Shown piece after piece: positions 7,894-24,376 of a stretch of 64,000 nucleotides of DNA. Location of the stretch: NCBI GenBank assembly GCA_902547925.1, contig CACCQD010000001.1, forward strand, positions 26,557 to 90,556, given 5' to 3'. This DNA comes from an uncultured SAR116 cluster alpha proteobacterium (GTDB lineage: Bacteria > Pseudomonadota > Alphaproteobacteria > Puniceispirillales > Puniceispirillaceae). Below the pieces are notes generated by a model. The model was given only the letters and a program-made list of their open reading frames with translations, searched no databases and was not told the origin of the DNA. The translations under genes and the position numbers were made by a program. Every line of letters begins with the position of its first letter. The stretch's first letter is position 1.

Positions 7894-9090
7894 ATGCCGA
7901 ACAGAGATTACAGTGCCGGTCGCCATTTCCTTCAGATCCCCGGCCCAACAAATGTTCCTGATCGTGTTCTGCGGGCGATGGACCATCCAACGATTGATCA
8001 TCGCGGACCCGCCTTCACCGAGTTGGGAAAGCGCTGTCTTGATGGCATGAAGACCATCTTCAAAACAGACACGCATGTGGTGATATATCCGGCCTCAGGA
8101 ACAGGTGCATGGGAGGCGGCGCTGGTCAATCTGCTCTGTGAAGGTGACACGGTCCTCATGGTCGAGACCGGCCATTTCGCCTCACTTTGGCAGAAAATGG
8201 CGACAAACCTCGGGATCAAAACTGAGTTTCTGGAAACTGACTGGCGGCGTGGCGTTGACCCGCAGGCCGTTGAGGACAGGCTTCGTGCCGATAGCGCTGG
8301 AGAAATCCGGGCCGTCTGCGTGGTTCATAACGAGACCTCCACCGGATCGCGCTCGCGTATTGGCGAGGTTCGCAAGGCTATGGATGCAGCCGGCCACACA
8401 GCCCTGTTGATGGTCGACACCATTTCCTCGCTAGCATCAATCGATTATCGGCATGATGAGTGGGGCGTCGATGTGACCGTCTCTGGCTCGCAGAAAGGAC
8501 TGATGATGCCCCCAGGGCTTTCTTTCAATGCCCTTTCAGAGCGCGCTATTGCCGAGTCTGGGAACGGTGGAATGAACCGCTCCTATTGGGATTGGCATGA
8601 TCAGATTGCCGCCAACGCTTCCGGTGCCTTTCCGTTCACGCCAGCAACAAACCTGCTTTATGGTCTCGCCGAGGCGATCGACATGCTGCATGAAGAAGGG
8701 CTGGATAATGTCTTTGCGCGTCATGACCGCCACGCCGAAGCAACGCGGCGCGCCGTGCAGGCATGGGGTCTGGAGGTTCTGTGTCAGGAGCCGCAGGATT
8801 ACTCAAGCTCGCTGACGGCGGTTTTGTTGCCTGAAGGACATGATGCTGATGCCTTGCGGGCGACAATATTGCGGCATTTCGATATGTCGCTTGGCAATGG
8901 GCTGTCGCGCCTTGCGGGTAAGGTTTTCCGCATCGGGCATTTGGGTGATTTCAATGATCTGATGCTGATGGGAACGTTGAGCGGTGTCGAGATGGGCTTG
9001 AAACTTGCCGATATACCGCATCAGTCAGGTGGCGCCGCCACCGCAATGCAATATCTAGCACAAACGGCTTATGTCGGGAGCGCTTCATGA
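7894..9090 (+). CDS. Class V pyridoxal-phosphate aminotransferase (serine-glyoxylate / alanine-glyoxylate aminotransferase type)
   Basis: 398 aa. N-terminus GRHFLQIPGPTNVPDRVLRAM and PLP-lysine context SGSQKGLMMPPGLSF. GAGGA lies upstream of the ATG. Confidence 0.88.
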   Translation: MPNRDYSAGRHFLQIPGPTNVPDRVLRAMDHPTIDHRGPAFTELGKRCLDGMKTIFKTDTHVVIYPASGTGAWEAALVNLLCEGDTVLMVETGHFASLWQKMATNLGIKTEFLETDWRRGVDPQAVEDRLRADSAGEIRAVCVVHNETSTGSRSRIGEVRKAMDAAGHTALLMVDTISSLASIDYRHDEWGVDVTVSGSQKGLMMPPGLSFNALSERAIAESGNGGMNRSYWDWHDQIAANASGAFPFTPATNLLYGLAEAIDMLHEEGLDNVFARHDRHAEATRRAVQAWGLEVLCQEPQDYSSSLTAVLLPEGHDADALRATILRHFDMSLGNGLSRLAGKVFRIGHLGDFNDLMLMGTLSGVEMGLKLADIPHQSGGAATAMQYLAQTAYVGSAS

Positions 9091-9875
9091 CGGAGGAATT
9101 GCGCTATGAGGTGGAGAACAATATCGGCCGGATCATTCTCAACCGGCCACACCGCCGCAATGCGCTCACCTTTGCCATGTATGACCGGATCAGGGAAATC
9201 TGCCGCATCGCTGGCACGGATGATGACACGGACAAGGTCAAGGTTCTGATCTTTTTGGGTGGCGGCGATATGGCCTTTGCTGCTGGAACGGACATCTCTC
9301 AATTCCGCGATTTCACCGACAAACAGCACGCTATTGATTACGAAGAAAAGATCGAGGTGGTGATGGAGCAGATTGAACAATGCGCCGTGCCAACCATCGC
9401 CGCTCTCAACGGGTTTGTGACAGGCGGCGGTGCCAGTGTCGCCGCGTCTTGTGCAATCCGCATTGCCAGCACTGATGTAAAGATTGGTGTGCCCATTGCA
9501 CGCACTCTGGGAAATTGCCTGTCGATCAGTGGGCTTAAAAGGCTGGTGGCTCTGGTCGGTGAAGCGCGGGCGCGATATATTCTGTTGACCGGACAATTGA
9601 TGGATGCCACCGCAGCGCAATCTGCTGGCTTCATTTCCGAGACACTTGCCGACAAACAGGCGGTTGATGCACGGGCAATGGAACTGGCCCAGATGATGAC
9701 AGGATTTGCCCCGCTGACAATAAAGGCGACAATGGAAGGGTTAGGGCGTCTGCGGGCGGCAACGCCCACACCAAGCGACCATGATTTGATTGAAATGTGC
9801 TTTGGCAGCGAAGATTTCAAAGAGGGTATCTCAGCCTTTTTTGAAAAGCGCAAACCTGACTGGCGAGGCAACTAG
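9087..9875 (+). CDS. Enoyl-CoA hydratase/isomerase (crotonase) family protein, copy A
   Basis: 262 aa. Motifs FAAGTDISQF, NGFVTGGGASVAASC and the C-terminal SEDFKEGISAFFEKRKPDW. ATGA overlap with the aminotransferase gene. Confidence 0.88.
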   Translation: MTEELRYEVENNIGRIILNRPHRRNALTFAMYDRIREICRIAGTDDDTDKVKVLIFLGGGDMAFAAGTDISQFRDFTDKQHAIDYEEKIEVVMEQIEQCAVPTIAALNGFVTGGGASVAASCAIRIASTDVKIGVPIARTLGNCLSISGLKRLVALVGEARARYILLTGQLMDATAAQSAGFISETLADKQAVDARAMELAQMMTGFAPLTIKATMEGLGRLRAATPTPSDHDLIEMCFGSEDFKEGISAFFEKRKPDWRGN

Positions 9876-9952
9876 CAACACCATTGGCAACTGGAAAAAC
9901 CCCCGTTGGCACAGCAGATATTAATCCTTTGCTCTTTGCCTTTTTCTAATTT

Positions 9953-9962
9953 TGGTATACCA
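9953..9962. promoter_or_regulatory. Putative GntR/FadR-type operator, site 1 (TGGTATACCA, exact palindrome)
   Basis: Perfect 10-bp palindrome in non-coding DNA, 133 nt upstream of the aldehyde dehydrogenase ATG. Same motif recurs at 17513, 20583 and 24377. Confidence 0.6.
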
Positions 9963-10094
9963 TATCTCCCAATGGAAACGCCATTGACTGAACACGGGCT
10001 GTAGCTATCCATCGTCTTTGTTGGTAGATTCCGGAAATTCTCCCGGGGGTTCAGCCGGGTTTTAGTGGAATTTTTATTGGGGGACCAATTTTAA

Positions 10095-11519
10095 ATGGCA
10101 TACGCACATTACATTGCTGGAGAGTGGGTCACCGACGACGCCGTTTCCATCAATATCAATCCATCCAATACAGATGACATTGTCGGTGAGTTTTCGCGTG
10201 GTGACGCGGCCCGTGTTGACAAGGCCGTTGCCGCAGCGAACGCCGCACAGCCAGACTGGGCGGCCGCCAGCCCCCAACTGCGCCATGATGTGCTTGAAAA
10301 GGCCAGCAATCTGATTGCCAGCCGCAAGGATGAATTGGGCCGTCTGCTCTCTCGCGAGGAAGGCAAGACACTGGCCGAGGGAATTGGCGAGACAATGCGC
10401 GCTGCACAGGTCTTTAAATTTTTTGCCGGTGAAGCCATTCGCAACATTGGTGACGCTGTCGCCTCAATCCGTCCAGGTATTGATGTAACGGTGGAGCGCG
10501 AGGCTGTCGGCACAATCGGCCTGATTACCCCGTGGAATTTTCCGATTGCGATTCCAGCCTGGAAGCTGGCACCCGCATTGGCCTATGGCAATGCGTTAGT
10601 GATGAAACCAGCAGAGTTAACGCCGGGTTGCGCGTGGGAGCTTACGAAGATTCTTCAAGAGGCAGGCTGTCCGTCGGGTGTGTTTAATCTGGTGATGGGA
10701 CCGGGATCAACCGTTGGTGCGCGGATTGTCGAACATCCGGGCATTGATGCCATCAGCTTCACCGGTTCGGTCGCCACTGGCAACACTATCGCTGTGCAGT
10801 GCGCCTCTACCGGCAAACGCGTGCAGATGGAAATGGGCGGCAAAAACCCACTCGTTGTCGTCGATGATGCCGATCTTGATGTTGCTGTCGCAACAGCCGT
10901 CAATGGTGCGTTCTTCTCAACAGGTCAGCGTTGCACGGCCTCTTCCCGGCTGATTGTGACGGCTGGCATTCATGATGCCTTTCTGGAGAAACTGACAAGT
11001 GCCGCCGCCGATCTGATCGTCGGTGACGCGCTGGATGCGGCAACCCAGATCGGGCCCGTTGTCGATCAGAAACAGCTCGACCAGAATTTGCGCTATCTGA
11101 AACTTGCCAGTGATGAAGGCTGTGACGTTCGCGGTGGCGAGTTGGCAAACGGACCGGGCTTTTTTATGAAACCGGCAATCTTTGCCGGGGCAACAAATCA
11201 GATGACCGTCAGCCGTGAGGAAATTTTCGGTCCAATGGCCTCGGTTATCAAGGTGGCTGACTATGACGAAGCGCTGGCAGTGGCAAATGACACTGAGTTC
11301 GGCCTTTCAGCCGGCATCTGCACCACATCACTGAGATATGCCTCAGACTTTCGCAAAAAGGCACAGGCGGGAATGGTGATGGTCAATCTGCCGACCGCCG
11401 GGGTGGATTATCACGTTCCCTTTGGCGGACGAAAAGGGTCGAGCTATGGTCCACGTGAGCAGGGGAGCTATGCGCGGGAGTTCTACACTATCGTCAAGAC
11501 CAGCTACATAGCCCCCTGA
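10095..11519 (+). CDS. NAD(P)-dependent aldehyde dehydrogenase (2-oxoglutarate-semialdehyde / lactaldehyde dehydrogenase-like)
   Basis: 474 aa. Catalytic Glu context MEMGGKNP and catalytic Cys context FFSTGQRCTASSR. GGGGGA lies upstream of the ATG. Confidence 0.9.
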   Translation: MAYAHYIAGEWVTDDAVSININPSNTDDIVGEFSRGDAARVDKAVAAANAAQPDWAAASPQLRHDVLEKASNLIASRKDELGRLLSREEGKTLAEGIGETMRAAQVFKFFAGEAIRNIGDAVASIRPGIDVTVEREAVGTIGLITPWNFPIAIPAWKLAPALAYGNALVMKPAELTPGCAWELTKILQEAGCPSGVFNLVMGPGSTVGARIVEHPGIDAISFTGSVATGNTIAVQCASTGKRVQMEMGGKNPLVVVDDADLDVAVATAVNGAFFSTGQRCTASSRLIVTAGIHDAFLEKLTSAAADLIVGDALDAATQIGPVVDQKQLDQNLRYLKLASDEGCDVRGGELANGPGFFMKPAIFAGATNQMTVSREEIFGPMASVIKVADYDEALAVANDTEFGLSAGICTTSLRYASDFRKKAQAGMVMVNLPTAGVDYHVPFGGRKGSSYGPREQGSYAREFYTIVKTSYIAP

Positions 11520-11566: not shown

Positions 11567-12484
11567 ATGACAGCAAAATCCTATTCCGGCATTTGGCCCG
11601 TGGCCCCGACTCCGTTTCACGACAATGGCGTGGTGGATGACGATGGCATGCGCAACGTTCTTGATTGCATGATTGATCAGGGCGTTGACGGCATTTGCAT
11701 TCTGGCAAATTTTTCCGAACAATTCCTGATCTCCGATGCCGAGCGCGATCATCTGATGAGGTTGTGCCTAGCGCATGTCGATGGCCGTGTTCCGGTGATT
11801 GTGACGATCAGCCATTTTGCCACACAGATTGCCGTGGAACGAGCGCGCCTTGCCAAGAAGTTGGGTGCGGCTATTGTCATGATGATGGCACCCTATCACG
11901 GTGCCTTACTGAAAGGCACCGCCGACCAGACATTTGAGCAGGTCAAAGCTGTTGGCGAGGTTGGCATTCCCATCATGATCCAGGATGCCCCGCTCTCAGG
12001 GGTCGAATTGCCGGTTCCCGTTCTGGTGCGTATGGCGACCGAGATTGAGATGGTCAAACTTTTCAAGATCGAGTCCGTTGGTGTTGCGGGCAAACTCCGT
12101 CAGTTGCTTGCTGCCGGTGGTAGTGCCATCGAAGGACCGTTCGATGGCGAGGAAGCAATCACCCTTCTTGCAGATCTGGATGCCGGGGCAACCGGATCGA
12201 TGACCTCGGCGCTAATCCCTGATCTGATTGGACAGGTAATCACGGCGCATGCCGCCAGCAACAGGCGAGAAGCCATTGCTGGTTACACACGAATTCTGCC
12301 AGTGATCAATCACGAGAACAGGCAATGCGGCTTCCGGGCGGCGAAGGCTGCCATGGTTGCGGGCAAAGTCATCAAATCCGATTTCTGTCGCCATCCGATC
12401 CCGCCGCTTCATCCAGAAACCAAGGCTGGTCTTCTCGAATTGCTAACCCCTCTTGACCCGATTGTATTAAATTGGGGACATTAA
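11567..12484 (+). CDS. Dihydrodipicolinate synthase / N-acetylneuraminate lyase (DHDPS/NAL) family protein, divergent
   Basis: 305 aa. Family-like N-terminus GIWPVAPTPFHDNGVVDDDGMRNVLDCMIDQGVDGI and probable Schiff-base Lys in VKLFKIES. The usual GTTGE and Y-N-xP motifs are replaced (ANFSEQ, IQDAP). Confidence 0.75.
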   Translation: MTAKSYSGIWPVAPTPFHDNGVVDDDGMRNVLDCMIDQGVDGICILANFSEQFLISDAERDHLMRLCLAHVDGRVPVIVTISHFATQIAVERARLAKKLGAAIVMMMAPYHGALLKGTADQTFEQVKAVGEVGIPIMIQDAPLSGVELPVPVLVRMATEIEMVKLFKIESVGVAGKLRQLLAAGGSAIEGPFDGEEAITLLADLDAGATGSMTSALIPDLIGQVITAHAASNRREAIAGYTRILPVINHENRQCGFRAAKAAMVAGKVIKSDFCRHPIPPLHPETKAGLLELLTPLDPIVLNWGH

Positions 12485-12487: not shown

Positions 12488-13186
12488 ATGGCTAAGCAGA
12501 ACATCCTTTCAGCATTGATGAATGATGGCCCCATCATCGCCAACGAGCATAGATCGCTCAGTGCCGAGACGGCAGAAAAGCTGCGCGAGTTGATCCTGCT
12601 TGAAAAGCTCCCACCGGGCATGCATATCCCTGAGCGTGATCTGGCCGAAGCGCTCGGCATAAGCCGGACCCCAATGCGCGAGGCATTGCGAACCCTAGCA
12701 ATTGAAGGGCTGGTCGAATTCACCGCAACACGGCGTTCACGCGTGGCCAATCCCTCCATCGACGAGCTTCGTGAAAGTATGACAGTCCTTGCAACATTGG
12801 AAGCACTTGGCGGCGAGCTTGCCTGTGCGATCGCCACGGACAGAGAAATCACAGCGATCGCTGACCTCAATCAGAAAATGATTGAGTGCACCGATAAATT
12901 CTCAGCGATCAATTTCTTTAACACCGATATGGCGTTTCACAGCAGCATCATTACCTCCACCCATAATCAGGCGCTGATCGACACACACCGGCAATATAAT
13001 GCAAAGCTATGGCGGGCGCGCTTCATGTCATCGAAGCGCAAACAGGGGCGTGCCAAAACCTTGCAACAGCATCAGGATATCACCAATGCGTTGGTTTCCC
13101 GGAATGCGTCCAAGATGGCGCAAGTCATGCGCAGTCATATCGAGACGGCGATTGACAATCTTAGCATCCAGCAAAACGAAACATAG
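12488..13186 (+). CDS. GntR-family transcriptional regulator, FCD (FadR-like) C-terminal domain
   Basis: 232 aa. Winged-HTH block LPPGMHIPERDLAEALGISRTPMREALRTLAIEGLVE followed by a helical C-terminal domain of about 140 aa. Starts 4 nt after the DHDPS-like stop. Confidence 0.88.
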   Translation: MAKQNILSALMNDGPIIANEHRSLSAETAEKLRELILLEKLPPGMHIPERDLAEALGISRTPMREALRTLAIEGLVEFTATRRSRVANPSIDELRESMTVLATLEALGGELACAIATDREITAIADLNQKMIECTDKFSAINFFNTDMAFHSSIITSTHNQALIDTHRQYNAKLWRARFMSSKRKQGRAKTLQQHQDITNALVSRNASKMAQVMRSHIETAIDNLSIQQNET

Positions 13187-13228: not shown

Positions 13229-14236
13229 ATGAAACCACGCATTGGCATTATTCCGGGAGAACCGGGCGGCATCGGCCCGGAGCTGATTGCAAAATTGCTG
13301 AATGATACCGAGACATGCGCGAAGGCAGATATTCTGTTGATCGGCGATCAGCATTTGTTTGAACAGGGTCAGACGCAGGCCGGCATGGATTTTGCCATGA
13401 CCCGTTGTGATGGCTGGAAAGATGAGTGGACAACGCTGCCAGGCTTTGCGTTGCATCCAATGGATACGATCAACCCGGACGATGTCACCATGTCCGAGGT
13501 CACATATGCCGGTGGTCACTCAGCACTGTCCAATCTGAATTGCGCTTTGGAAATGGCTCGCGATGGCATCATTGACGCGATCATGTTTGGCCCTTTCAAC
13601 AAGGTGGGTTTGATCGAGGCCGGGCTTGGTCACGAGGACGAACTGCATTACATGGCTGAGTTTCTGGGTGTCGAGAGCTATATCTCTGAATTGAATACTC
13701 TGAACGGCATCTGGACGAGCCGCGTTTCCAGCCATATTCCGCTAAAGGATGTTCATTCTTTCATCAACGAGCATCGTATTTCAGAGGCGGTGGATCTGCT
13801 CGACAAAACATTGCGGCGCTCTGGTGTCGAACGTCCACGCCTATCAGTTGCAGCGCTCAATCCTCATGCCGGTGACAATGGAAATTTTGGCATGGAGGAG
13901 ATCGAGGTGATCATCCCGGCCGTCAAAAAGTTGCAGCACAAGCAGGTCAATGTCGACGGCCCGTGGCCATCAGACACTGTTTTTCTAAAGGCTAAGGCTG
14001 GCGAGGTTGACGGCATAATCACCATGTATCACGACCAGGGCCAGATTGCGCTGAAACTGATGGGATTTGATCGCGGTGTAACGGTTCAGGGGGGCATTCC
14101 CTTCCCGGTGACAACACCGGCGCATGGCACCGCCTTTGACATCGCCGGCAGTGGTACCGCCGATGTCGGGGCCACACGCGAAGCCTTTTTGATTGCCTGT
14201 GACATGGTCAGCCATTGGGAAAAAGCAGCACAGTAG
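13229..14236 (+). CDS. PdxA-family NAD-dependent dehydrogenase (4-hydroxythreonine-4-phosphate dehydrogenase-like paralog)
   Basis: 335 aa. Family motifs GEPGGIGPE, NPHAGDNG, MYHDQG and TTPAHGTAFDIAG. AGGAG lies upstream of the ATG. Confidence 0.85.
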   Translation: MKPRIGIIPGEPGGIGPELIAKLLNDTETCAKADILLIGDQHLFEQGQTQAGMDFAMTRCDGWKDEWTTLPGFALHPMDTINPDDVTMSEVTYAGGHSALSNLNCALEMARDGIIDAIMFGPFNKVGLIEAGLGHEDELHYMAEFLGVESYISELNTLNGIWTSRVSSHIPLKDVHSFINEHRISEAVDLLDKTLRRSGVERPRLSVAALNPHAGDNGNFGMEEIEVIIPAVKKLQHKQVNVDGPWPSDTVFLKAKAGEVDGIITMYHDQGQIALKLMGFDRGVTVQGGIPFPVTTPAHGTAFDIAGSGTADVGATREAFLIACDMVSHWEKAAQ

Positions 14237-16378: not shown

Positions 16379-17353
16379 CTATTCAATCAGACCCATTTCC
16401 TTGAGGGCTGGACCAAATTCGCCGACCATCATCTTGATCTGCTCACCCCAAGCGCCAGATTCCATCGGCGAGGTGTTATCAAGGCCAGAATTCATCAGAT
16501 AGGCCTGATAGAGTGAGTGACCCATAGCCTTCATCATCGCTGCTTCCATCTCAGCGCGGCGCTCTTCAGAGACACCAGCATGAGTGACAAAACCGCGGGT
16601 TGTTGACAGAACCAGATCGATGCCCATTTCCTTGGCGGTCTTTGCAGCTGGGATCGGGTCCATGCGGTTCTCACCAAGAATAACCAGTGGACACAGATCG
16701 CCTGCCTCGATTGGGGCTGATGCCTCAGACAGGTTCAGTGTGCCAACATCGACAGCACCAGCGACAACCTGTGTTGCCAGCTCGCCGCCACCACCAAATG
16801 GAATGTAAGTCGGCATCGGCTGACCCATGCGCTTGGCCCACAGATAAACAGTCAAATGGTCAATTGTACCTGATGATGTGCCACCGAATTTCATGGCATC
16901 GCCATTCTTCATGCCAGCAACAAACTCCTCGGGGGTCTTGTAGGGGCTGGTCTTACAGTTGACCATTAGGATCTGCGGGTCATTGGTGCCACGAGCGATT
17001 GGTGCCATTTCCTCAACTTTCAGATCGGTCATGCCTTTAGCCATGGCAATGGCGTGACCAACGGTGAAGGTCAGGATTGTATTGCCATCAGCTGGGCGGC
17101 TGTGAAAATACTGCATCGCCGCAGCACCGCCGCCGCCACGTTTGTTGACGACAACCATATCTTGCTTGAGATGCCGACGTGTCCGGATCATCATCATTCT
17201 TGAGTTGACGTCGGTACCACCACCGGCACCAGCGTGGGTGACAACCTCGATAGTACCCTCAGCTGCAACTGCGGGCGCTGTTGTTATGGCCATAACACCG
17301 GCCATTGATGCGATACCGACACCGGCCGCAAGAATCTGCTTTGTATTGAACAT
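16379..17353 (-). CDS. tctC: Tripartite tricarboxylate transporter substrate-binding protein (TctC / Bug family)
   Basis: 324 aa. Signal-peptide-like N-terminus MFNTKQILAAGVGIASMAGVMAITTAPAVAA. Bug-family-like blocks VVNKRGGGGAAA and FGGGGE. Confidence 0.88.
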   Translation of the reverse strand: MFNTKQILAAGVGIASMAGVMAITTAPAVAAEGTIEVVTHAGAGGGTDVNSRMMMIRTRRHLKQDMVVVNKRGGGGAAAMQYFHSRPADGNTILTFTVGHAIAMAKGMTDLKVEEMAPIARGTNDPQILMVNCKTSPYKTPEEFVAGMKNGDAMKFGGTSSGTIDHLTVYLWAKRMGQPMPTYIPFGGGGELATQVVAGAVDVGTLNLSEASAPIEAGDLCPLVILGENRMDPIPAAKTAKEMGIDLVLSTTRGFVTHAGVSEERRAEMEAAMMKAMGHSLYQAYLMNSGLDNTSPMESGAWGEQIKMMVGEFGPALKEMGLIE

Positions 17354-17512
17354 TTGGTTCCTCCCAGAACTTAAAAATCAGAATGTTTTACTCACTCAGT
17401 TTGACCAGTGTTATCCGGCCGTTTATTTGTTGTTGCCCCGGCCAATACCGACACGGCATTCACCCGAACCTTCGCTGCAAAACGGCATCATACATGTACC
17501 GCTACATTATTA

Positions 17513-17522
17513 TGGTATACCA
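17513..17522. promoter_or_regulatory. Putative GntR/FadR-type operator, site 2 (TGGTATACCA, exact palindrome)
   Basis: Perfect palindrome in the 285-nt non-coding gap, 160 nt upstream of the tctC start. Confidence 0.6.
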
Positions 17523-17638
17523 AAATTTCTGGCGAAACAACGCTCAATTACGCAAAAGGAACATTGTCTGAAATGTGTCTGTACTGTCGTTTAACTTATT
17601 GATTTATATGCCTACAAAGTTAAACACCATCAAGCGGA

Positions 17639-18484
17639 TCAATCGACAACAAGACCTGCCTCACTGGCGCGTGCCACCAGATAATCCCGCCCCGTCAGCA
17701 TATCCTCGATACTGGCAAAGCCATTCATATAATGTCCCTGGTAACCCAAACCTTCGATCTTGGCGAACATCGCGCCAAAATCGATTGTGCCCTCACCGGG
17801 TATCTGATGGATCTCGTAGGAGCCATTATTGTCGGCAAGCCGTACCTCATGGCACAGGGAAAAATCCATTGAATCGATAAAGCTATCAATGCCAACACCC
17901 GGCAGAAAATGCGCGTGGTTGGCCGTAAAAGACCATCGCAATGCCGGGCTTTCGATCTGACGGAAGAAATATATGCATTCTGCCGGTGTCACCGGCATGT
18001 AATTGACTTCAGCCAGCACCGGCTCCCAGTTCAGATTTTCGAGGAGCAGAAGCACATTCTTGCTTTCAGCGTAATCCGCAATGCGCCGCAACCTGTCGAT
18101 TGACGCCTGCATGCGCAACTCACGGCAGGCGGTAAAATGATAGCCTCCATGGACGACGATCCACCCGGCACCAACCTTGCCAGCAAGATCTATGTAGGCA
18201 CGCATATATTGATCAACAGCATCCCGGCAGAATGGCGAAATTTCGGCAACATTCACACCGGACAGGGTGTGCAATCCCAGTTTGACGCCATGGGTATCGG
18301 TCAGGCTACGAACCTGCAGACAGCGTTCATCATCGAAGGACTCAAGCTGGTTTGGCGCTATGTCGGTCTGCGCATCAATGAAATGCACATCATTGGCCGC
18401 AGCCCAGACAATTCCTTCCTCGACCGGAACACGCCGTCCAAGATCAATACCTATTCGCTGTTTCAGATTGAGCTGTGCCATCAT
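17639..18484 (-). CDS. Xylose-isomerase-like TIM-barrel enzyme (sugar phosphate isomerase/epimerase family), copy B
   Basis: 281 aa. Blocks RIGIDLGR, GLHTLSGVNVAEISPF, WIVVHGGYHF, LLLENLNWEP and GYQGHYMNGF are collinear with copy A at 2589..3395. Confidence 0.85.
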   Translation of the reverse strand: MMAQLNLKQRIGIDLGRRVPVEEGIVWAAANDVHFIDAQTDIAPNQLESFDDERCLQVRSLTDTHGVKLGLHTLSGVNVAEISPFCRDAVDQYMRAYIDLAGKVGAGWIVVHGGYHFTACRELRMQASIDRLRRIADYAESKNVLLLLENLNWEPVLAEVNYMPVTPAECIYFFRQIESPALRWSFTANHAHFLPGVGIDSFIDSMDFSLCHEVRLADNNGSYEIHQIPGEGTIDFGAMFAKIEGLGYQGHYMNGFASIEDMLTGRDYLVARASEAGLVVD

Positions 18485-18525: not shown

Positions 18526-19338
18526 CTAGCGACCCTTAAAGGCGGGCTTTCGCTTTTCCATGAAGGCGCGTCGGCCCTCAACATAGTCCTCACTCTCAAA
18601 ACAGCCTGTCACCATAGTCTCGATACGGGCCAGATCACGATTGCTGTCAGGTTTATGCAACTCATGGGTTATAGCCTTGATCGATGCCATGGTGAGCGGG
18701 GCGTTCTCGGCAATGCGCGTGGCATAATCGGCAACATAGGCGGACAGCATGTGCCCCGGCATGATCCGATTCACCAAGCCCATTTCACGCGCTTCATCGG
18801 CGGTAAACTGACGTGCCGTAAAAAATATCTCTTTGACCATGGACGGACCGACCAGATCAGCAAGCCGTTTAACCCCCTCAAATCCATAGCCAACACCTAG
18901 CTTGGCGGCTGGCACGGCAAATCGGCTTCGGTCCTCGCAGATGCGCAGATCACAGGCAACTGCCAATCCCATACCCCCGCCAATACAATAGCCTTGGATC
19001 ATTGCAATGGTCGGCTTGGGAAAGCCAAAAACAGCATCGTAGAATGTCTTTGTGGCGGTGCTGTATGTGGCAACATCGTCGCTGCTTGACCGTTCCTTTT
19101 CGAATTTGGAGATATCGGCACCAGAGGCAAAGGCCTTGCCGCCTGCCCCCTGAATGACCAGCAACCGCGCCGACGGATCGGCTGCCATCGCAGCCACCCG
19201 GGCGGCACCAGCCTCATACATTGCCAGCGAAATGGCATTATGTCGTTCTGGATTGTTGATCACCAGATAGCCAATATTGGCCACCACACCAGCTAGAATT
19301 TTGCCGTCGGCGATTGCGTCAAGGTCGGAAAATTTCAT
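18526..19338 (-). CDS. Enoyl-CoA hydratase/isomerase (crotonase) family protein, copy B
   Basis: 270 aa. Motifs FASGADISKF, QGYCIGGGMGLAVACD and SEDYVEGRRAFMEKRKPAF. 4-nt overlap with the CoA-transferase gene. Confidence 0.88.
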   Translation of the reverse strand: MKFSDLDAIADGKILAGVVANIGYLVINNPERHNAISLAMYEAGAARVAAMAADPSARLLVIQGAGGKAFASGADISKFEKERSSSDDVATYSTATKTFYDAVFGFPKPTIAMIQGYCIGGGMGLAVACDLRICEDRSRFAVPAAKLGVGYGFEGVKRLADLVGPSMVKEIFFTARQFTADEAREMGLVNRIMPGHMLSAYVADYATRIAENAPLTMASIKAITHELHKPDSNRDLARIETMVTGCFESEDYVEGRRAFMEKRKPAFKGR

Positions 19339-20519
19339 ATGGCGCCCGCCTCCTCAAAGGCTGCTATTTCAGCCTCGCTATACTCACATTCAGCCAAAAT
19401 TTCGCGCGTATGCTGGCCCAGCTTTGGCGGTGGGCGGCGGATGGTGGGTTCGGACTCGCTCATGATAATGGGTTGTCCGACGATCTGAGTTGCGCCGCGT
19501 TCCTGGCTGTTCATATCCCGGGCAATGCCCAGATGCACGACCTGAGGGCTGGAAAAAACCTTGTCGATGCTGTTGATCTCCCCGCATGGCACGCCGACCT
19601 TGTTGAGGCGGGATATCCAATTATCAGACGTGTCAGCGCGGGTGTTCTCACTGATAAGTGCATTCAGCGTGTCGCGGTGCTCACTACGGGACTCGGCTTG
19701 GGCATAGATATCCGCGTCCAATCGTGGATCACCAATCTCGTCTTTCAAACGCAGCCAGATATGTTGCCCCGCGGCAGCGATATTAATATGACCGTCAGAT
19801 GTCTCGAACACACCGGTTGGGATTGATTTGGGATGGTTGTTGCCAGCCTGATGCGGCACCTCACCATCCATCAGCCAGCGTGTGGCCTGAAAATCAAGCA
19901 TGGCGATCTGCGCCTGCAAAAGCGAGGTTTGCACCCATTGACCAGTGCCCGTTTTTTCCCGGCCAAGCAAGGCCAGCAGCACACCCTGCGCCGCAAAACC
20001 ACCAGCCGTCAGATCCGCGATTGGAATGCCGACGCGCATTGGCCCCTCACCCGGCGCACCGGTGATCGACATCAATCCGCCCATGCCCTGGGCGATCTGA
20101 TCAAATCCGGGACGTGTGGCAAGTGGTCCATCCTGGCCAAAACCAGAGATTGACGCATAAACGATGCGGGGATTGATCGCCTTGATCGTCTCATAATCAA
20201 GGCCGAGGCGGAATTTTACGTCCGGCCTGTAATTCTCGACTATGACATCGGCGTTGGTCGCCAAACGCTTGAAAATGGCCACACCGGATTCATGTTTCAG
20301 ATTAAGAACGACCGAACGCTTGTTGCGATGCAGGTTCTGGAAATCCGAGCCATCACGTGACCCACCCATATCCGCACCCGCCGCATTTGGCGCCTCAATC
20401 TTGATTACATTCGCGCCCCAATCAGCAAGCTGCCGCACACAGGTCGGCCCGGAGCGAACACGTGTCAGGTCAAGAACGGTGATGTGTGACAGGATATCGC
20501 CAGCAGGTTCAAACGCCAT
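19335..20519 (-). CDS. Family III CoA-transferase (CaiB/BaiF type)
   Basis: 394 aa. N-terminus VLDLTRVRSGPTCVRQLADWGANVIKIE and block VIVENYRPDV are typical of family III CoA-transferases. Confidence 0.88.
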   Translation of the reverse strand: MAFEPAGDILSHITVLDLTRVRSGPTCVRQLADWGANVIKIEAPNAAGADMGGSRDGSDFQNLHRNKRSVVLNLKHESGVAIFKRLATNADVIVENYRPDVKFRLGLDYETIKAINPRIVYASISGFGQDGPLATRPGFDQIAQGMGGLMSITGAPGEGPMRVGIPIADLTAGGFAAQGVLLALLGREKTGTGQWVQTSLLQAQIAMLDFQATRWLMDGEVPHQAGNNHPKSIPTGVFETSDGHINIAAAGQHIWLRLKDEIGDPRLDADIYAQAESRSEHRDTLNALISENTRADTSDNWISRLNKVGVPCGEINSIDKVFSSPQVVHLGIARDMNSQERGATQIVGQPIIMSESEPTIRRPPPKLGQHTREILAECEYSEAEIAAFEEAGAI

Positions 20520-20582
20520 TTTTTCCTCGGTAACTGTTCAGATTCTGTCTCTGAAATCCAGCGACACCTCTGACTGTAAAAA

Positions 20583-20592
20583 TTGTATACCA
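20583..20592. promoter_or_regulatory. Putative GntR/FadR-type operator, site 3 (TTGTATACCA, 9/10 match)
   Basis: Lies in the divergent promoter region, 64 nt from the CoA-transferase start and about 105-125 nt from the MatB-like start. Confidence 0.5.
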
Positions 20593-20697
20593 AATTAAGA
20601 AGCTATAGCCCGGCCTGTCAATCGCCTTTGCCCGCGGCCTTTTGGAAGCATTGAAATTGATCTACGTTGTGAAACAGGGTAAATCTGCTGCCGTAAA

Positions 20698-22221
20698 ATG
20701 CTTGGGATGGGTTCAATGACAAATACTCTTTATGATGGGGTTTTCGCGCCCCATGCCGTTAGCAAGAAGGTTTTTTTGTTCACACCCAAAGGTGAGGTCA
20801 GTTTCGCCGCCTTCACCCAGATGACAAACCGTTTGGCCAACTGCCTTGTCGAAAATGGCATGCAACCCGGTGACAGGGTGGCGGTGCAGGCGGAAAAATC
20901 AGTCACACAGCTGGCGCTCTATGCCGCCACTATCAAGGCGGGCGGTGTTTATTTGCCGCTCAACACCGGGTATACACCACATGAGCTAGAGTATTTTGTT
21001 GGTGATGCAAAGCCGACGATTGTCGTTTCTGCCAATGGTGTCAGCGCGGCTATTGCGCCGCTGACGGAGGGCATTGGGGCATCATTATTGACGTTGAATG
21101 CCGATGAGACCGGAAGCCTCACCCAGCAAGCAGACACGGCCTCGCCAGAGTTTGTGACCGTTGCGCGTGGCAGTGAGGATCTGGGGGCTATTCTCTATAC
21201 TTCAGGAACAACTGGGCGATCCAAGGGGGCAAAGTTGTGCCACCGCAATCTGTTGTCAAATGCCGAGATATTGGCCAAGAGCTGGCAATTTAGCAGCGAT
21301 GATGTGTTGCTGCACATGTTGCCAATCTATCACACCCACGGGCTGTTCGTCGCCAGCAACCTACTCTGTATGGTGGGCGGCAGCATGATCTTCCTACCAA
21401 AATTCTCCGCTACTGATGCGCTGGACTGGATGCCGCAAGCCACCAGCATGATGGGGGTTCCGACCTTTTACACGCGGCTCCTCGATGCCCCCGAATTTAC
21501 CCGCGAGGCTGCGAGCCATATGCGGCTGTTCATTTCCGGTTCTGCGCCCATGTTGGCCGAGACACATGTCCAGTTTGAGGAACGCACCGGCAACAGGATT
21601 CTCGAACGCTACGGTATGACCGAGACCAATATGAGCATTTCAAACCCTTATGAGGGCGCACGCGTCGCCGGCACCGTGGGCAAACCTCTGCCCGGGGTCG
21701 AGATTCGCATTGCTGATGCCAAAACAGGCGCGCCCGTTGCAGCTGGCGAAATTGGAGTCATTGAACAACGCGGCGACAACGTGTTTTTAGGGTATTGGGA
21801 AATGCCTGAAAAGACAGCTGAGTCTTTCCGTGATGATGGGTTTTTTATCACTGGCGATATGGCGCAACAGAATGCGGATGGCTACATCACCATCGTTGGC
21901 CGGGACAAGGATTTGATCATTTCTGGCGGTCTGAACGTCTATCCAAAAGAGATCGAGGGTCTGATTGATGAATTTGATGGCGTTCTGGAATCAGCGGTAA
22001 TCGGCGTCCCCCACCGAGATTTTGGTGAGGCCGTGGTTGCTGTTATCGTATCGTCCGATAGCCCTCTTGATATCGATGCCATCCGTGCCTCACTCGCCGG
22101 CAGGATTGCAAAATTCAAACAACCAAAGGCGATCATACTGGCAGACGCCTTGCCAAGAAATACCATGGGCAAGGTGCAAAAGGCTGAATTGCGGAAAACC
22201 CATGCAGATCTGTTTGCCTGA
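20698..22221 (+). CDS. AMP-dependent acyl-CoA synthetase, malonyl-CoA synthetase (MatB)-like
   Basis: 507 aa. AMP-binding motif ILYTSGTTGRSKGA and MatB-like N-terminal region GDRVAVQAEKS...GGVYLPLNTGYT. The true start may be ATG 20716 (MTNTLYDGVF). Confidence 0.85.
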   Translation: MLGMGSMTNTLYDGVFAPHAVSKKVFLFTPKGEVSFAAFTQMTNRLANCLVENGMQPGDRVAVQAEKSVTQLALYAATIKAGGVYLPLNTGYTPHELEYFVGDAKPTIVVSANGVSAAIAPLTEGIGASLLTLNADETGSLTQQADTASPEFVTVARGSEDLGAILYTSGTTGRSKGAKLCHRNLLSNAEILAKSWQFSSDDVLLHMLPIYHTHGLFVASNLLCMVGGSMIFLPKFSATDALDWMPQATSMMGVPTFYTRLLDAPEFTREAASHMRLFISGSAPMLAETHVQFEERTGNRILERYGMTETNMSISNPYEGARVAGTVGKPLPGVEIRIADAKTGAPVAAGEIGVIEQRGDNVFLGYWEMPEKTAESFRDDGFFITGDMAQQNADGYITIVGRDKDLIISGGLNVYPKEIEGLIDEFDGVLESAVIGVPHRDFGEAVVAVIVSSDSPLDIDAIRASLAGRIAKFKQPKAIILADALPRNTMGKVQKAELRKTHADLFA

Positions 22222-22225
22222 CAGT

Positions 22226-23131
22226 TTATCCAACAAAGTGTTGGCTTTTCTCACGCCATAGGATGAACACTGACGAGAGCACAATGACGATGCTGCCGAC
22301 AAAAATTTCAAAAGTCAGAATTTCACCAAAGACCATTATCCCGGCGATGATGCCGAACGGAACCGAGAGATAGCGAAACGGCGCGAGCAGGCTGGCCGGG
22401 GCAAGCCGGTGGCTGAGTGCAATGAAAAACTGCTGAAAGCTTGACAGAGCGCCAATCAGCACGAGTATGACAAGACTGGTCTGATCCATCGGCATCCTTT
22501 CACCTTGCCAGACAAAGAGCAGCGCAAACAGCATTGCGCCAGCGCCATTGTACCAGATGGCGGTGCTTGCTGGGTTCTCACTGCGGCCTAGCTTGCGCAG
22601 CATCACCAGCATCAGAGCCCCAAAAAAGGGAGCCCCAAATCCCAGCATCACACCCAATGGCGACCAGCCGTCAGCACCCGGGCTGATGACCACAATCGCG
22701 CCCCCAAAACCGACAATCACCGCCGTCCACCGGCGCCACCCAACATGTTCACCAAGCAGAAATGGCGCAAGGAAAGTGATAAACAAAGTCAATGTCTGAA
22801 ACAGCGTTGTGACCTTGGCCAGCGCCATCAGATCGAGCGCCGCATAGAAACAGGTCAGGCTACTCAGCCCCGCGATAATCCGTGCGGCCAAAATGCGATA
22901 TTGGGAGACAGCGAATGCGGAATGCCCATGCTGAAAAATCGCGACAAGGATCAAAAGTGGCAGACACAGCGCATAGCGGAACATCAGAATGGTGATGATT
23001 GAGAAATCTGGAGTGATAAATTTCACCAGCACTGAAATACCCACAGTCAGCAGGATTTCAGCGATTCCAATGGAGACTCCGAGGGAAATGTTGGGATGGC
23101 GATCAGACTGTTCTGCAGCATCCACCATCAC
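22226..23131 (-). CDS. DMT-superfamily (EamA-like) permease
   Basis: 301 aa with about 10 hydrophobic segments in a two-EamA-repeat architecture. Lies downstream of the dehydratase gene on the same strand. Confidence 0.8.
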   Translation of the reverse strand: MMVDAAEQSDRHPNISLGVSIGIAEILLTVGISVLVKFITPDFSIITILMFRYALCLPLLILVAIFQHGHSAFAVSQYRILAARIIAGLSSLTCFYAALDLMALAKVTTLFQTLTLFITFLAPFLLGEHVGWRRWTAVIVGFGGAIVVISPGADGWSPLGVMLGFGAPFFGALMLVMLRKLGRSENPASTAIWYNGAGAMLFALLFVWQGERMPMDQTSLVILVLIGALSSFQQFFIALSHRLAPASLLAPFRYLSVPFGIIAGIMVFGEILTFEIFVGSIVIVLSSVFILWREKSQHFVG

Positions 23132-23161
23132 AATGAACCAGAACGAGGAGTGGGTGTCACA

Positions 23162-24334
23162 TCAGCCCTCAATGTCGAATTGATCGACATATTTATCTGA
23201 AATGCTGGTCCCAAGACCCGGCAGCGTATCATCCAGATCGAGGTAACCATCAACAGCGTCCGGATCACCATCGAAGATATAGTAGAAGAGTTCATTGCCA
23301 ACCTCGACATCAAAGACCGGGAAATACTCGCTGATCGGGCAATTGAAATTGGCCATCGTAAGGTGATAATTATGCATTTGTCCGGCATGTGGAATCACCG
23401 GAATCTGATGCGCCTCGGCAACCGCGTTAATCTTCTGGGCGGCGGTAATGCCACCGACACGGTTGGTGTCATATTGCAGAACGCTGACGGCCTTTTCCTG
23501 CAACAGCTGTGCACAGCCAAGCAGCGAGAATTCATGCTCGCCACCGGAAATCGGTATAGGCCCGCGGTTGAGTTCGGCATAGCCCCGCAAATCATCGGCG
23601 ATCACAGGTTCCTCGAGCCAACGCGGCTCAAATTTTTCAAGCTTGGGAAGCATGCGACGGGTGTAATCAAGGTTCCAGCCCATATAAGCCTCAAGCATGA
23701 TATCGGTATCATAGCCGATCACCTCGCGCACCGCCTCGACGCGCTTCAGATTTTCCCGCATCCCAGTCATTCCGTCTCTCGGTCCGTAGCCAAAGCGTGT
23801 CTTGAAACCAGTATAGCCATTTTTCAACGCCTCTTCGGCTTCTGCCTGCATGGCCTCGATCGGCCCCGCATAAAGCTTCGAATAATAGACTGGGATTTTT
23901 TCCTTGGTACGCCCCCCGAGAAGTTTGAAAACCGGCTTGCTAGCCAGCTTTCCCATGAGATCCCAGATGGCAATATCTATGGCTGAAATAGCAACCATGC
24001 CAACACCCTTGCGCCCCCACGCATGGGTGCGGCGGTACATTTTTTCCCAGAGATAGGCGTAATCAAACGGATCCTCGTCAATCACCAGCGGTGCATAGAA
24101 TTCGTCAATGGCTTTTTTCGTCAATGATGGGGCAAGCGCCGCATTGCCGATGCCAACAGTGCCGCAATCGGTCGTGATCTCACAGGTGAGCCACTGGTGA
24201 AAGCGGAAGGAACTCATCGCATCACCCCTCTCCCAAAGCGCGTCTGATGCATTGGTACAGAAATTTCCCTGTGGCGGAACGGTTGGCCCTTTCCAGTTCC
24301 AGACGCGTGCCCTGACCGACATTATTTTTGCCAT
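23162..24334 (-). CDS. Enolase-superfamily acid-sugar dehydratase, L-rhamnonate dehydratase-like
   Basis: ORF 23162..24355 has a TTG start. Preferred start is ATG 24334 ([12 protein letters not shown]) with AGGA upstream. Blocks [27 protein letters not shown] and EEPV; long N-terminal capping region as in the RhamD group. Confidence 0.82.
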
Positions 24335-24376
24335 ATTCCTGTCACTCCCCCCCAATACGATCGTCCGTCCTAAATT

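Follow-up and report, generated by a model that had tools for sequence, protein, structure and literature searches.

A conserved SAR116 gene cluster joining predicted L-lyxonate pathway enzymes to uncharacterized coenzyme A-dependent enzymes

The SAR116 locus and its closest described counterparts

Two described catabolic routes come closest to a gene cluster that we analyzed in an uncultured alphaproteobacterium of the SAR116 cluster (GenBank assembly GCA_902547925.1, contig CACCQD010000001.1, positions 26,557 to 90,556 of the forward strand; this 64,000-nucleotide stretch is referred to below as the window, and coordinates are its own). The first is the L-lyxonate pathway of Pseudomonas aeruginosa, which Ghasempur and colleagues are said to have reported in 2014 (Biochemistry 53:3357) together with a description of the dehydratase LyxD. 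The second is the aerobic ascorbate pathway of Cupriavidus necator H16. In this species, according to what Stack and colleagues reportedly found in 2020 (JACS 142:1657), a cytochrome b561 enzyme oxidizes L-ascorbate, a gluconolactonase opens the lactone to give 2,3-diketogulonate, a WD40-like protein converts this by benzilic rearrangement to 2-carboxy-L-lyxonolactone, an amidohydrolase hydrolyzes that lactone, and a PdxA-family enzyme decarboxylates the product to L-lyxonate. 2,3-Diketogulonate also rearranges non-enzymatically to 2-carboxy-L-pentonate and lactones, which decay to L-lyxonate and L-xylonate (PMC11066805). Our literature searches turned up no published description of the SAR116 cluster, and a preprint on Vibrio does not describe the aerobic pathway.

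The window follows the same logic as the P. aeruginosa PAO1 pathway and contains the same three enzyme families: a LyxD approximately 84% identical to the Labrenzia enzyme, a dehydratase of the DHDPS family and a KGSADH-like aldehyde dehydrogenase (ALDH). Transport and arrangement differ. PAO1 has an MFS transporter and a porin, with PA2214 listed in an open-access paper as the putative L-lyxonate transporter, whereas the window has a tripartite tricarboxylate-type (TTT) importer, a DMT permease and GntR regulation. Unlike in PAO1, lyxD lies 9 kb from the DHDPS and ALDH genes, in an operon with a predicted operator of its own, and the pathway is embedded among coenzyme A (CoA)-dependent genes that are missing from the Pseudomonas cluster. 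The window resembles C. necator H16 in having a PdxA-family enzyme of the same non-PdxA subgroup beside LyxD-pathway genes. The upstream ascorbate families are encoded at related loci of Paraburkholderia, Variovorax, Ruegeria and Phaeobacter, but tblastn searches of the 64-kb window detected none of the four when queried with representatives of each family (cytochrome b561 oxidase, gluconolactonase, WD40-like protein and amidohydrolase lactonase). In comparison with H16, the window instead has the TTT importer, an uncharacterized TIM-barrel protein (TIM) and a CoA module.

About one half of the cluster matches the L-lyxonate pathway with a PdxA-family step, and the other consists of uncharacterized CoA-dependent enzymes. 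We regard the cluster as a variant of a known pathway, widespread in marine metagenomes and carrying a seemingly co-regulated CoA branch, and not as a categorically new system. Our preferred interpretation, which we hold with as much doubt as belief, is that it forms one GntR-controlled regulon built from three gene modules (A, B and C) and serves the use of acids formed by oxidation of vitamin C. Module A comprises LyxD, the DHDPS-family dehydratase, ALDH and the PdxA-family enzyme; module B, a FAD/Fe-S 2-hydroxyacid oxidase, a class V aminotransferase and the crotonase ECH1; and module C, a MatB-type ligase, a family III CoA-transferase (CoAT) and the crotonase ECH2, with which we group TIM. 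Gene content was established from a listing of open reading frames (ORFs) and Pfam scans, and names were refined with NCBIfam scores. All twelve gene families reported in an earlier note on this DNA are present where it placed them, but that list overlooked the GntR/FCD regulator (12488-13186, plus strand), and the conserved unit extends further left, to the FAD/Fe-S oxidase.

Sequence comparisons allow the module A enzymes to be identified with considerable confidence. The enolase-superfamily protein encoded at 23162-24355 matches PDB entries 3STP and 3SQS at 769 bits and approximately 84% identity, and it retains the KxR motif (FKTRF) and the catalytic His (IPHAGQ) in the alignment to 3STP. 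We take 3STP to be the L-lyxonate dehydratase LyxD of Labrenzia aggregata, in agreement with a numbering check: R179 and H316, the residues reportedly mutated in the LyxD study, are both obtained when a 22-residue tag is subtracted from the 3STP numbering. The corresponding residues are conserved in the window protein, which is also 80% identical to the product of the gene in the Ruegeria pomeroyi PdxA-LyxD-DHDPS-ALDH operon. We assign this enzyme as an L-lyxonate dehydratase by predicted activity.

The DHDPS-like protein matches the L-2-keto-3-deoxyarabonate (L-KDA) dehydratase of Azospirillum brasilense (3FKK/7C0C) at 332 bits and approximately 52% identity, with the next solved structure at 88 bits. 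The lysine of its FKIE motif, which is presumably the catalytic (Schiff-base) residue, aligns with these structures. Dehydration of L-lyxonate and of L-arabinonate yields the same 2-keto-3-deoxy-L-pentonate because only the C4 configuration remains. The protein is a predicted ortholog of L-2-keto-3-deoxypentonate (2-keto-3-deoxy-L-lyxonate/arabinonate; L-KDP) dehydratase and not a lyase. L-KDP dehydratase belongs to the DHDPS/NAL superfamily and feeds 2-oxoglutarate semialdehyde dehydrogenase (PMC6336799). We rejected an aldolase function, YagE being matched at only about 58 bits. The earlier note had envisaged a DHDPS-type lyase releasing a C3/C4 fragment for activation by CoA enzymes, a scheme that loses the source of its fragment because the enzyme appears to be a dehydratase giving 2-oxoglutarate semialdehyde.

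The next enzyme in this route, ALDH, is a probable 2-oxoglutarate semialdehyde dehydrogenase: its best NCBIfam models are KGSADH GucD and 2,5-dioxovalerate dehydrogenase (approximately 505 bits, under the equivalog cut-offs), and orthologs 58-72% identical to it lie within LyxD clusters (survey loci L030, L044, L050, L064, L067 and L083).

The PdxA-like protein falls under every NCBIfam PdxA cut-off (251 bits against 290 for PdxA itself). Aligned to E. coli PdxA, the equivalents of the metal-binding residues His166, His211 and His266 and of K274 are invariant in its subgroup. H136, T137, N283 and R292, the residues that bind the phospho-substrate in E. coli PdxA, are E, L, T and V in the window protein and are replaced throughout the subgroup. 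On the low scores and these replacements we rejected a housekeeping PdxA (4-hydroxythreonine-4-phosphate dehydrogenase). The protein is 48-58% identical to those of clusters with upstream ascorbate genes, including homologs at 48-52% in Burkholderia/Cupriavidus loci with beta-propeller and amidohydrolase genes, and it is a probable 2-carboxy-L-lyxonate (2-carboxy-L-threo-pentonate) decarboxylase. An exact-sequence look-up of the window protein returned no record.

RefSeq names LyxD orthologs "L-rhamnonate dehydratase" and the PdxA-like decarboxylases "PdxA" (L086, L087, L088, L089 and L090). As with the PdxA score given above, the window LyxD stays far under the corresponding NCBIfam cut-off (180 bits against 393 for L-rhamnonate dehydratase). 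The earlier note could name no pathway for this combination of enzymes; this still applies to the CoA-transferase, crotonase and ligase part, which matches no characterized pathway that we found, whereas the PdxA, dehydratase, DHDPS and ALDH combination is a described one.

A predicted GntR regulon and its conservation

The GntR protein, encoded midway in the plus-strand operon, is the predicted regulator of the cluster. An 18-bp palindrome with the core TGGTATACCA (at most one mismatch), of a form typical of FadR/FCD-type GntR operators, occurs at four sites in the 64 kb, compared with 0.77 expected. All four are intergenic and stand in front of cluster operons: ALDH-DHDPS-GntR-PdxA, tctCBA, CoAT-ECH2-TIM with the divergent MatB gene, and lyxD-eamA (operators 1 to 4; Table 1). 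The core is exact in operators 1 and 2 and carries one mismatch in operators 3 and 4. Against a position weight matrix (PWM) made solely from 23 sites outside the window, the four score 26.2, 28.2, 24.5 and 22.5 bits, respectively, and the next best match in the window scores 13 bits. Operator 2 overlaps a minus-strand promoter-like site (17535-17506), taken from a scan that was not above chance overall.

The predicted sites recur in other genomes. Operator 1 is kept at the equivalent place in L001, L002, L004 and L006; operator 2 is conserved in L001 and L004 and is weaker in L002; and operator 3 is conserved in front of CoAT in L001, L002, L004 and L008. The palindrome is also found upstream of TctC in minimal Roseobacter-type operons and in the TctC/GntR region of TIM-type clusters, and GntR orthologs (44-67% identical) are encoded in simple TctCBA-LyxD-DHDPS-GntR-PdxA operons bearing the same operator. 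Because module A and module C genes share the predicted operator, these modules do not appear to be merely adjacent, and a single regulon spanning both is likely. By this evidence, module C has been placed under the regulator that would control module A in simpler genomes. Module B is tied into the regulon less firmly, with weaker sites (15-17 bits) at the FAD-oxidase/aminotransferase region in only two SAR116 contigs, L002 and L006.

The closest relatives of the PdxA-like protein come from marine alphaproteobacterial metagenome-assembled genomes (MAGs), namely an uncultured Alphaproteobacterium (92% identical) and members of the Puniceispirillaceae (SAR116) and Rhodobiaceae (76-83%). Gene order is kept in the 92%-identical MAG and in the SAR116 and Rhodobiaceae contigs, whose proteins are 54-91% identical to those of the window. 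The FAD/Fe-S oxidase gene is divergent from a series encoding the aminotransferase, crotonase 1, ALDH, DHDPS, GntR and PdxA, joined in some contigs by an enolase; the opposite strand carries TctABC, TIM, crotonase 2 and the CoA-transferase, followed by a sulfatase and/or a MatB-like ligase. Conservation of this order in both families argues against chance juxtaposition and bears out the earlier note's view of the locus as a conserved catabolic unit for a TTT-imported acid. The SAR116 PdxA-like protein P0073 is indexed in 101 blocks of the sequence collection searched, and 25 contigs were read.

To place the cluster more broadly, one genome per species was scanned with the PdxA-like alignment, which gave 80 loci (46-81% identity), followed by tblastn of all window proteins. 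A LyxD-like enolase (63-86% identical) adjoins the PdxA-like gene in about 70 of 85 PdxA-seeded loci, and a DHDPS-like gene (50-81%) is present in about 55 of them; these neighborhoods span Alpha-, Beta- and Gammaproteobacteria and often also include GntR, a TTT or TRAP transporter and ALDH. The CoA genes are not widely conserved beside this PdxA subgroup. Minimal operons, consisting of TctCBA-LyxD-DHDPS-GntR-PdxA alone, occur in Qingshengfaniella and in many Roseobacter or Oceanospirillaceae genomes. The PdxA-LyxD loci of Ruegeria pomeroyi and Phaeobacter inhibens include a beta-propeller gene and an SMP-30 lactonase gene, that of Paraburkholderia graminis includes SMP-30, YncE and amidohydrolase genes, and that of Variovorax includes a cytochrome b561 gene. 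These beta-propeller, amidohydrolase, SMP-30 lactonase and cytochrome b561 neighbors correspond to families that the ascorbate pathway reportedly uses. Locus L080 of C. necator A5-1 has TctC-PdxA-LyxD and showed no upstream ascorbate genes, and so did not serve as a reference.

TIM-PdxA-LyxD-(ALDH)-DHDPS operons occur in Rhodospirillales and other MAGs, and the TTT proteins that they encode are close orthologs of those in the window: TctA is 83-85% and TctC 70-81% identical to the proteins of such clusters (L024, L027, L028, L030 and L063), compared with only 65% and 52%, respectively, for the Roseobacter-type minimal operons. No locus among the 10 TIM-bearing and 17 beta-propeller-bearing PdxA/LyxD loci has both. 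The additional genes that flank L030 and L063 are parts of different clusters. The EamA/DMT permease, a possible aldonate transporter, is conserved in its place downstream of LyxD only in L001 (88% identity).

Two further features of the relatives were observed. A sulfatase-family gene, missing from the window, is present in L002 (19465-20982), L004 (18461-19957), L028 (3365-4867) and L030 (17704-19203); it is divergent from the CoA-transferase gene in the first two, whereas in L028 and L030 it immediately follows TctA in the same orientation. The sulfatase of the relatives is classed as cytoplasmic, and as Cys-type in L028 and L030; the L002 copy lacks a signal peptide and carries the formylglycine motif CMPAR (CxPxR). 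Its presence hints that the substrate may also occur in sulfated form, for which ascorbate 2-sulfate would be a guess. In addition, LyxD is replaced by another enolase, 31% identical to LyxD and 23% to the Eno1 protein described below, in SAR116, Rhodobiaceae and one other MAG (L002, 11045-12172; L004, 11020-12144; L063, 5097-6209). Its gene directly follows PdxA in L002 and L004; in L063 its neighbors are the genes for TTT and TIM. This could be a non-orthologous replacement or reflect a changed substrate, for example L-xylonate.

Table 1. Coordinates of the cluster genes, predicted operators and flanking features in the window
Feature	Position	Strand	Annotation
FAD/Fe-S 2-hydroxyacid oxidase, partial	15-2180	-	N-terminal ~720 aa present, remainder beyond window start; module B
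Low-GC inserted block	2589-7612	-	TIM paralog, TRAP DctMQP, MLE-subgroup enolase
Class V aminotransferase	7894-9090	+	Pfam Aminotran_5; glyoxylate/serine type; 4-bp overlap with next gene; module B
Crotonase ECH1	9087-9875	+	Pfam ECH_1; non-hydratase; module B
Predicted GntR operator 1	9949-9966	.	ATTTTGGTATACCATATC; 5' of ALDH-DHDPS-GntR-PdxA genes
Aldehyde dehydrogenase (ALDH)	10095-11519	+	Pfam Aldedh; module A
DHDPS/NAL-family dehydratase	11567-12484	+	Module A
GntR/FCD regulator	12488-13186	+	Pfam GntR and FCD
PdxA-family enzyme	13229-14236	+	Pfam PdxA; module A
TctA	14353-15837	-	Pfam; TTT importer
TctB	15850-16305	-	Pfam; TTT importer
TctC	16379-17353	-	Pfam; TTT importer
Predicted GntR operator 2	17509-17526	.	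ATTATGGTATACCAAAAT; 5' of tctCBA
Xylose-isomerase-like TIM-barrel protein (TIM)	17639-18484	-	Pfam AP_endonuc_2; uncharacterized subfamily
Crotonase ECH2	18526-19338	-	Pfam ECH_1; non-hydratase; module C
Family III CoA-transferase (CoAT)	19335-20519	-	Pfam CoA_transf_3; dicarboxylate type; 4-bp overlap with ECH2; module C
Predicted GntR operator 3	20579-20596	.	AAAATTGTATACCAAATT; divergent CoAT/MatB promoter region
MatB-type ligase	20698-22221	+	Malonyl-/substituted-malonyl-CoA synthetase type; module C
EamA/DMT permease	22226-23131	-	Pfam EamA; downstream of LyxD
LyxD	23162-24355	-	Enolase superfamily, mandelate racemase subgroup; Pfam MR_MLE_N and MR_MLE_C; module A
Predicted GntR operator 4	24373-24390	.	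AATTTGGTATACCGTTTT; 5' of lyxD-eamA
tRNA-Leu(UAA)	24470-24554	+	ARAGORN; right-hand cluster boundary

Beyond the tRNA-Leu gene that bounds the cluster on the right, genes are unrelated or housekeeping, and from 27 to 64 kb the window is made up of housekeeping genes, including those for purine synthesis, rpsD, aminoacyl-tRNA synthetases and DAHP synthase. An ORF of 428 aa without a Pfam match (25424-26710, minus strand) lies just beyond the cluster and is flanked by an SDR gene and a gene of the rhomboid family.

On the left, a 5.7-kb block (2181-7893) parts the FAD/Fe-S oxidase gene from that of the aminotransferase, which in L001-L005 are adjacent and divergent with no such block between them. 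It encodes a paralog of TIM (2589-3422; 51% identical to the cluster protein), DctM (3412-4698), DctQ (4695-5261), DctP (5387-6445) and an MLE-subgroup enolase (Eno1; 6479-7612). Its GC content is 0.46-0.47, compared with 0.53-0.55 in the cluster, and the PWM scan found no GntR operator match within it. The block looks like a recent insertion of a small unit consisting of transporter, enolase and TIM. Eno1 is the second enolase-superfamily enzyme at which the earlier note hints; given its location in a low-GC TRAP insertion missing from relatives, we rejected it as a conserved member.

CoA-dependent and oxidase-linked modules

The recurrence of modules B and C was sought among annotated plasmids and chromids; megablast of the whole cluster against plasmids returned only short gene-level matches. 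In module C, the ligase exceeds the cut-off of the NCBIfam malonyl-CoA synthase subfamily (749 bits against 558) and matches Rhodopseudomonas palustris MatB (4FUQ) at 610 bits. It is a predicted ortholog of the malonyl-CoA synthetase MatB, although, unlike MatB systems, the window has no MatA or MatC. CoAT is most similar to SUGCT and to formyl-CoA and oxalate transferases: its best PDB match is SUGCT (239 bits), followed by formyl-CoA transferases and YfdE. It shares 62-65% identity with the CoA-transferases encoded at plasmid-borne module C loci.

Neither crotonase has the pair of catalytic glutamates on which enoyl-CoA hydratases depend. We compared them without gaps with the active-site segment of the rat enzyme (E144 and E164), and an alignment with E. 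coli ScpB brings the same two motifs into register: GGGAS and VPIA replace the Glu pair in ECH1, and GGGMG and VPAA do so in ECH2. The same replacements are found in orthologs of each. On this basis, we rejected CaiD-type hydration, and the CaiB/CaiD/CaiC-type logic proposed in the earlier note becomes unlikely. Oxalate degradation by the CoA module was also rejected, as the window encodes no thiamine diphosphate-dependent oxalyl-CoA decarboxylase and a crotonase cannot decarboxylate oxalyl-CoA. One of the nearest known systems is scpB-scpC of E. coli, which encodes the methylmalonyl-CoA decarboxylase YgfG and a propionyl-CoA:succinate CoA-transferase; there, as here, a CoA-transferase partners a crotonase devoid of the hydratase glutamates. 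Of the two ScpB residues Tyr140 and His66, the first has a counterpart only in the ECH2 family and the second in neither crotonase. The systems differ in that the window CoAT belongs to family III and is not of the ScpC type, His66 is missing, and the decarboxylase cut-off is not reached. From these comparisons, ECH2 would be a non-hydratase with some resemblance to methylmalonyl-CoA decarboxylase.

Orthologs of ECH2 (51-55% identical) follow a CoA-transferase gene in Roseomonas, Octadecabacter and Roseivivax, and MatB orthologs (55-60%) adjoin GntR-CoAT-ECH2 in the latter two. In Roseomonas marmotae, TctABC-GntR is divergent from CoAT-ECH2-TIM; in Octadecabacter and Roseivivax, MatB-GntR is divergent from CoAT-ECH2 and a PaaI thioesterase gene, with a TTT system, an Ldh_2 oxidoreductase, an enolase and a distant DHDPS-family gene nearby.

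TIM has no NCBIfam match above 37 bits (cut-off 305), and its sole PDB sequence match is MJ1311 (35 bits). Its AlphaFold (AF2) model (pLDDT 83) places ketose 3-epimerases, UlaE and YcjR as the best fold matches, with TM scores of 0.72-0.79 and 13-19% identity, and conserved acidic and His residues are typical of a metal site. The predicted fold is that of an epimerase or isomerase, and both the fold and the metal-site-type residues are shared with ketose 3-epimerases and UlaE/SgbU (L-xylulose-5-phosphate 3-epimerase). Unlike those enzymes, to which its identity is low, TIM has acid-sugar and CoA enzymes as partners, and not ketose or sugar-phosphate enzymes. Its gene directly precedes PdxA in L024, L028 and L030 and follows CoAT-ECH2 in Roseomonas. 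TIM orthologs fill all of the best 120 matches listed, in clusters of up to 683 member sequences.

The module B oxidase is 76% identical over 722 aa to a SAR116 ortholog (tblastn) and fuses GlcD-like and GlpC/GlcF-like domains in the YdiJ architecture. Where glycolate utilization systems have GlcC, GlcDEF and GlcG, oxidases of this type join the GlcD-like and GlcF/GlpC-like domains in a single 990-aa fusion. The full-length SAR116 ortholog falls short of every equivalog cut-off, with YdiJ as its best NCBIfam match (518 bits against 1350) and GlcD lower (202 against 568), which suggests that only the architecture is shared with the D-2-hydroxyglutarate dehydrogenase YdiJ and with GlcDEF. Among glyoxylate aminotransferases, the window enzyme is closest to BhcA (L-aspartate:glyoxylate aminotransferase), whose model it matches at 450 bits against a cut-off of 650; it is a related enzyme of a predicted different subfamily, coupled here to a crotonase.

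Aminotransferase orthologs (64-70% identical) lie beside the FAD/Fe-S oxidase and GntR in Limimaricola, Tateyamaria and Rhizobium, and in Acidiphilium and Limimaricola ECH1 orthologs (49-50%) have genes for a CoA-transferase and a class V aminotransferase as neighbors. The arrangements vary: in Limimaricola, GntR and the oxidase are divergent from aminotransferase-TRAP-ECH1-CoAT; in Acidiphilium, the order is CoAT-ECH1-BASS transporter-aminotransferase; and in Rhizobium, oxidase-GntR is divergent from the aminotransferase. On a Tateyamaria omphalii plasmid (L097, 256-14647), genes for MatB, GntR, the oxidase, the aminotransferase, TRAP and a GlcG-like protein stand beside a complete BhcABCD, the glyoxylate-assimilating beta-hydroxyaspartate-cycle operon. 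This proximity suggests that the oxidase and aminotransferase pair handles glycolate and glyoxylate. In Bradyrhizobium (L054, L065 and L085), GntR is divergent from an operon of an ECH1-like crotonase, a CoA-transferase, TctCBA and a PdxA-like protein, with no LyxD or DHDPS; this self-contained unit connects the PdxA subgroup with a Glu-less crotonase that would belong to another pathway.

Substrate, alternative readings and significance

An ascorbate-derived substrate is a proposition that we consider evenly poised. Because the upstream ascorbate enzymes are absent, the cell would scavenge products that are already oxidized, and entry is probably at 2,3-diketogulonate or 2-carboxy-L-pentonate, not at ascorbate; in seawater, ascorbate oxidation is spontaneous. 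In the route that we propose, the TTT system imports a branched acid, most likely 2-carboxy-L-threo-pentonate or its precursor 2,3-diketo-L-gulonate. The minimal operons, which consist of TctCBA-LyxD-DHDPS-GntR-PdxA alone, suggest that this importer takes up the substrate of the decarboxylase directly. The PdxA-family enzyme would then remove one of the two geminal carboxylates to give L-lyxonate, which LyxD would dehydrate to 2-keto-3-deoxy-L-pentonate. The DHDPS-family dehydratase would convert this to 2-oxoglutarate semialdehyde, and ALDH would oxidize the semialdehyde to 2-oxoglutarate. TIM, which has an epimerase-like fold and is also encoded within PdxA-LyxD operons, probably epimerizes, isomerizes or rearranges the imported keto-acid before decarboxylation.

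The specific chemistry that we propose for modules B and C is tentative and held with low confidence. Since ECH2 is a predicted non-hydratase encoded with a malonyl-CoA synthetase ortholog and a dicarboxylate CoA-transferase, a ScpB/ScpC-like logic appears likeliest for module C: one carboxylate of a malonate-type gem-dicarboxylate would be thioesterified and the other lost as CO2 in the crotonase oxyanion hole. Module C might in this way run parallel to the PdxA step in a CoA-dependent form, or act on a smaller analog such as tartronate. Module B would convert the 2-hydroxyacyl unit so formed, most simply glycolyl-CoA or glycolate, to glyoxylate and then glycine. Taken to its full extent, this leads to a picture that we consider improbable as a whole, in which abundant marine SAR116-type bacteria harvest oxidized vitamin C by enzymology new to science; TIM would replace the WD40-like protein and lactonase by turning 2,3-diketogulonate or a related keto-acid into the gem-dicarboxylate; MatB, CoAT and crotonase would decarboxylate hydroxymalonate-type acids (2-carboxy-aldonates and tartronate); and the oxidase and aminotransferase would take the glycolyl unit released by this decarboxylation to glycine. 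Hydroxyproline-betaine, uronate/aldarate and 3,6-anhydrogalactose routes were dropped once LyxD and the L-KDA dehydratase had been identified.

Several points weigh against the regulon and ascorbate interpretation. For the activity of the PdxA-family decarboxylase and for the equation of 3STP with LyxD, we rely on reported work and consistency checks, and the reaction of the window PdxA-like protein may differ, given its limited identity to the homologs from ascorbate clusters. The operators are predictions, a search of the window for promoters and terminators did not exceed chance (16 promoter-like sites compared with 13.3 expected), and the PWM finds no operator before the aminotransferase-ECH1 pair. 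ECH1 keeps neither Tyr140 nor His66 of ScpB, and the crotonases score 167 and 114 bits with the methylmalonyl-CoA decarboxylase model, against a cut-off of 257. CoA-dependent decarboxylation is redundant if PdxA already decarboxylates the same gem-dicarboxylate, and the Bradyrhizobium operon suggests that a PdxA-like enzyme and a crotonase may work one after the other on a different acid. Finally, the sulfatase of the relatives and their replacement of LyxD by a 31%-identical enolase are left unexplained by the model.

The strongest alternative, which we nonetheless think rather unlikely, is that three pathways without a common substrate lie side by side: L-lyxonate catabolism, conversion of glycolate through glyoxylate to glycine, and use of malonate or methylmalonate by MatB, CoAT and a crotonase-type decarboxylase. 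Each module does occur without the others, module A alone in Roseobacter-type operons, module B with its own GntR and TRAP in Limimaricola, Tateyamaria and Rhizobium, and module C in Roseomonas, Octadecabacter and Roseivivax, where it has a separate GntR and TTT. MatB is, moreover, a close ortholog of a proven malonyl-CoA synthetase, and no strong operator precedes the window aminotransferase gene. Yet the window and all close relatives have one regulator and one TTT for everything, with modules that are interleaved and not juxtaposed; the module A operator also stands before CoAT-ECH2-TIM/MatB in the window and relatives; TIM is common to module A and module C contexts; and the composite gene order is maintained across SAR116 and Rhodobiaceae. 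The earlier note had allowed that its idea would fall if the genes belonged to characterized pathways that merely adjoin. One part is indeed characterized and the other parts are found separately elsewhere, but the predicted common operator speaks against mere adjacency.

Less probable again is that the CoA module acts on aldonyl-CoA esters without decarboxylation, either by C2 epimerization, so that L-xylonate becomes L-lyxonate via a thioester and both spontaneous decarboxylation products feed LyxD, or by retro-aldol cleavage of a pentonyl-CoA to glycolyl-CoA and glyceraldehyde, after which the FAD oxidase and aminotransferase would take glycolate on to glycine. Neither crotonase has the hydratase residues, yet both keep a fold that stabilizes thioester enolates; the branched diacid yields L-xylonate as well as L-lyxonate (PMC11066805), the enzymes of module B suit a sequence from glycolate to glyoxylate and glycine, and ECH1 and a CoA-transferase sit with module B enzymes and a TRAP or BASS transporter in Limimaricola and Acidiphilium. 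A malonate-type ligase such as the MatB ortholog would, however, be unexpected for aldonates, and this purely inferential proposal has no identified base for either the epimerization or the cleavage.

The scheme of the earlier note, in which an imported polycarboxylate or sugar acid would undergo dehydration, the DHDPS-type enzyme would cut the product into pyruvate and a C3/C4 acid or aldehyde, and the CoA enzymes, TIM and aminotransferase would handle that fragment, is very unlikely: DHDPS/NAL aldolases for 2-keto-3-deoxy sugar acids exist (YagE is among the weak matches), and both ALDH and a glyoxylate-type aminotransferase are present, but the DHDPS-like protein is a clear L-KDA dehydratase ortholog by score, its gene travels with LyxD and 2-oxoglutarate-semialdehyde-type dehydrogenases, and an L-KDA-type route ends in 2-oxoglutarate and yields no fragment.

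Under our preferred interpretation of a GntR-controlled regulon for vitamin C oxidation acids, the cluster bears on annotation, enzymology and ecology. The RefSeq-style names "L-rhamnonate dehydratase" and "PdxA" conceal an L-lyxonate/ascorbate pathway, and because they mask LyxD and the decarboxylase, the pathway is hard to recognize even for a careful reader. For enzymology, the locus places three enzyme groups without a characterized member in a defined genetic setting that includes a predicted operator and regulator: the epimerase-fold TIM subfamily, the two Glu-less crotonase subfamilies, and the fused FAD/Fe-S 2-hydroxyacid oxidase with its partner, a class V aminotransferase. Ocean metagenomes commonly contain the composite cluster, which points to ascorbate breakdown acids as an unrecognized carbon source, and possibly also a source of glycine, for a major bacterioplankton clade.

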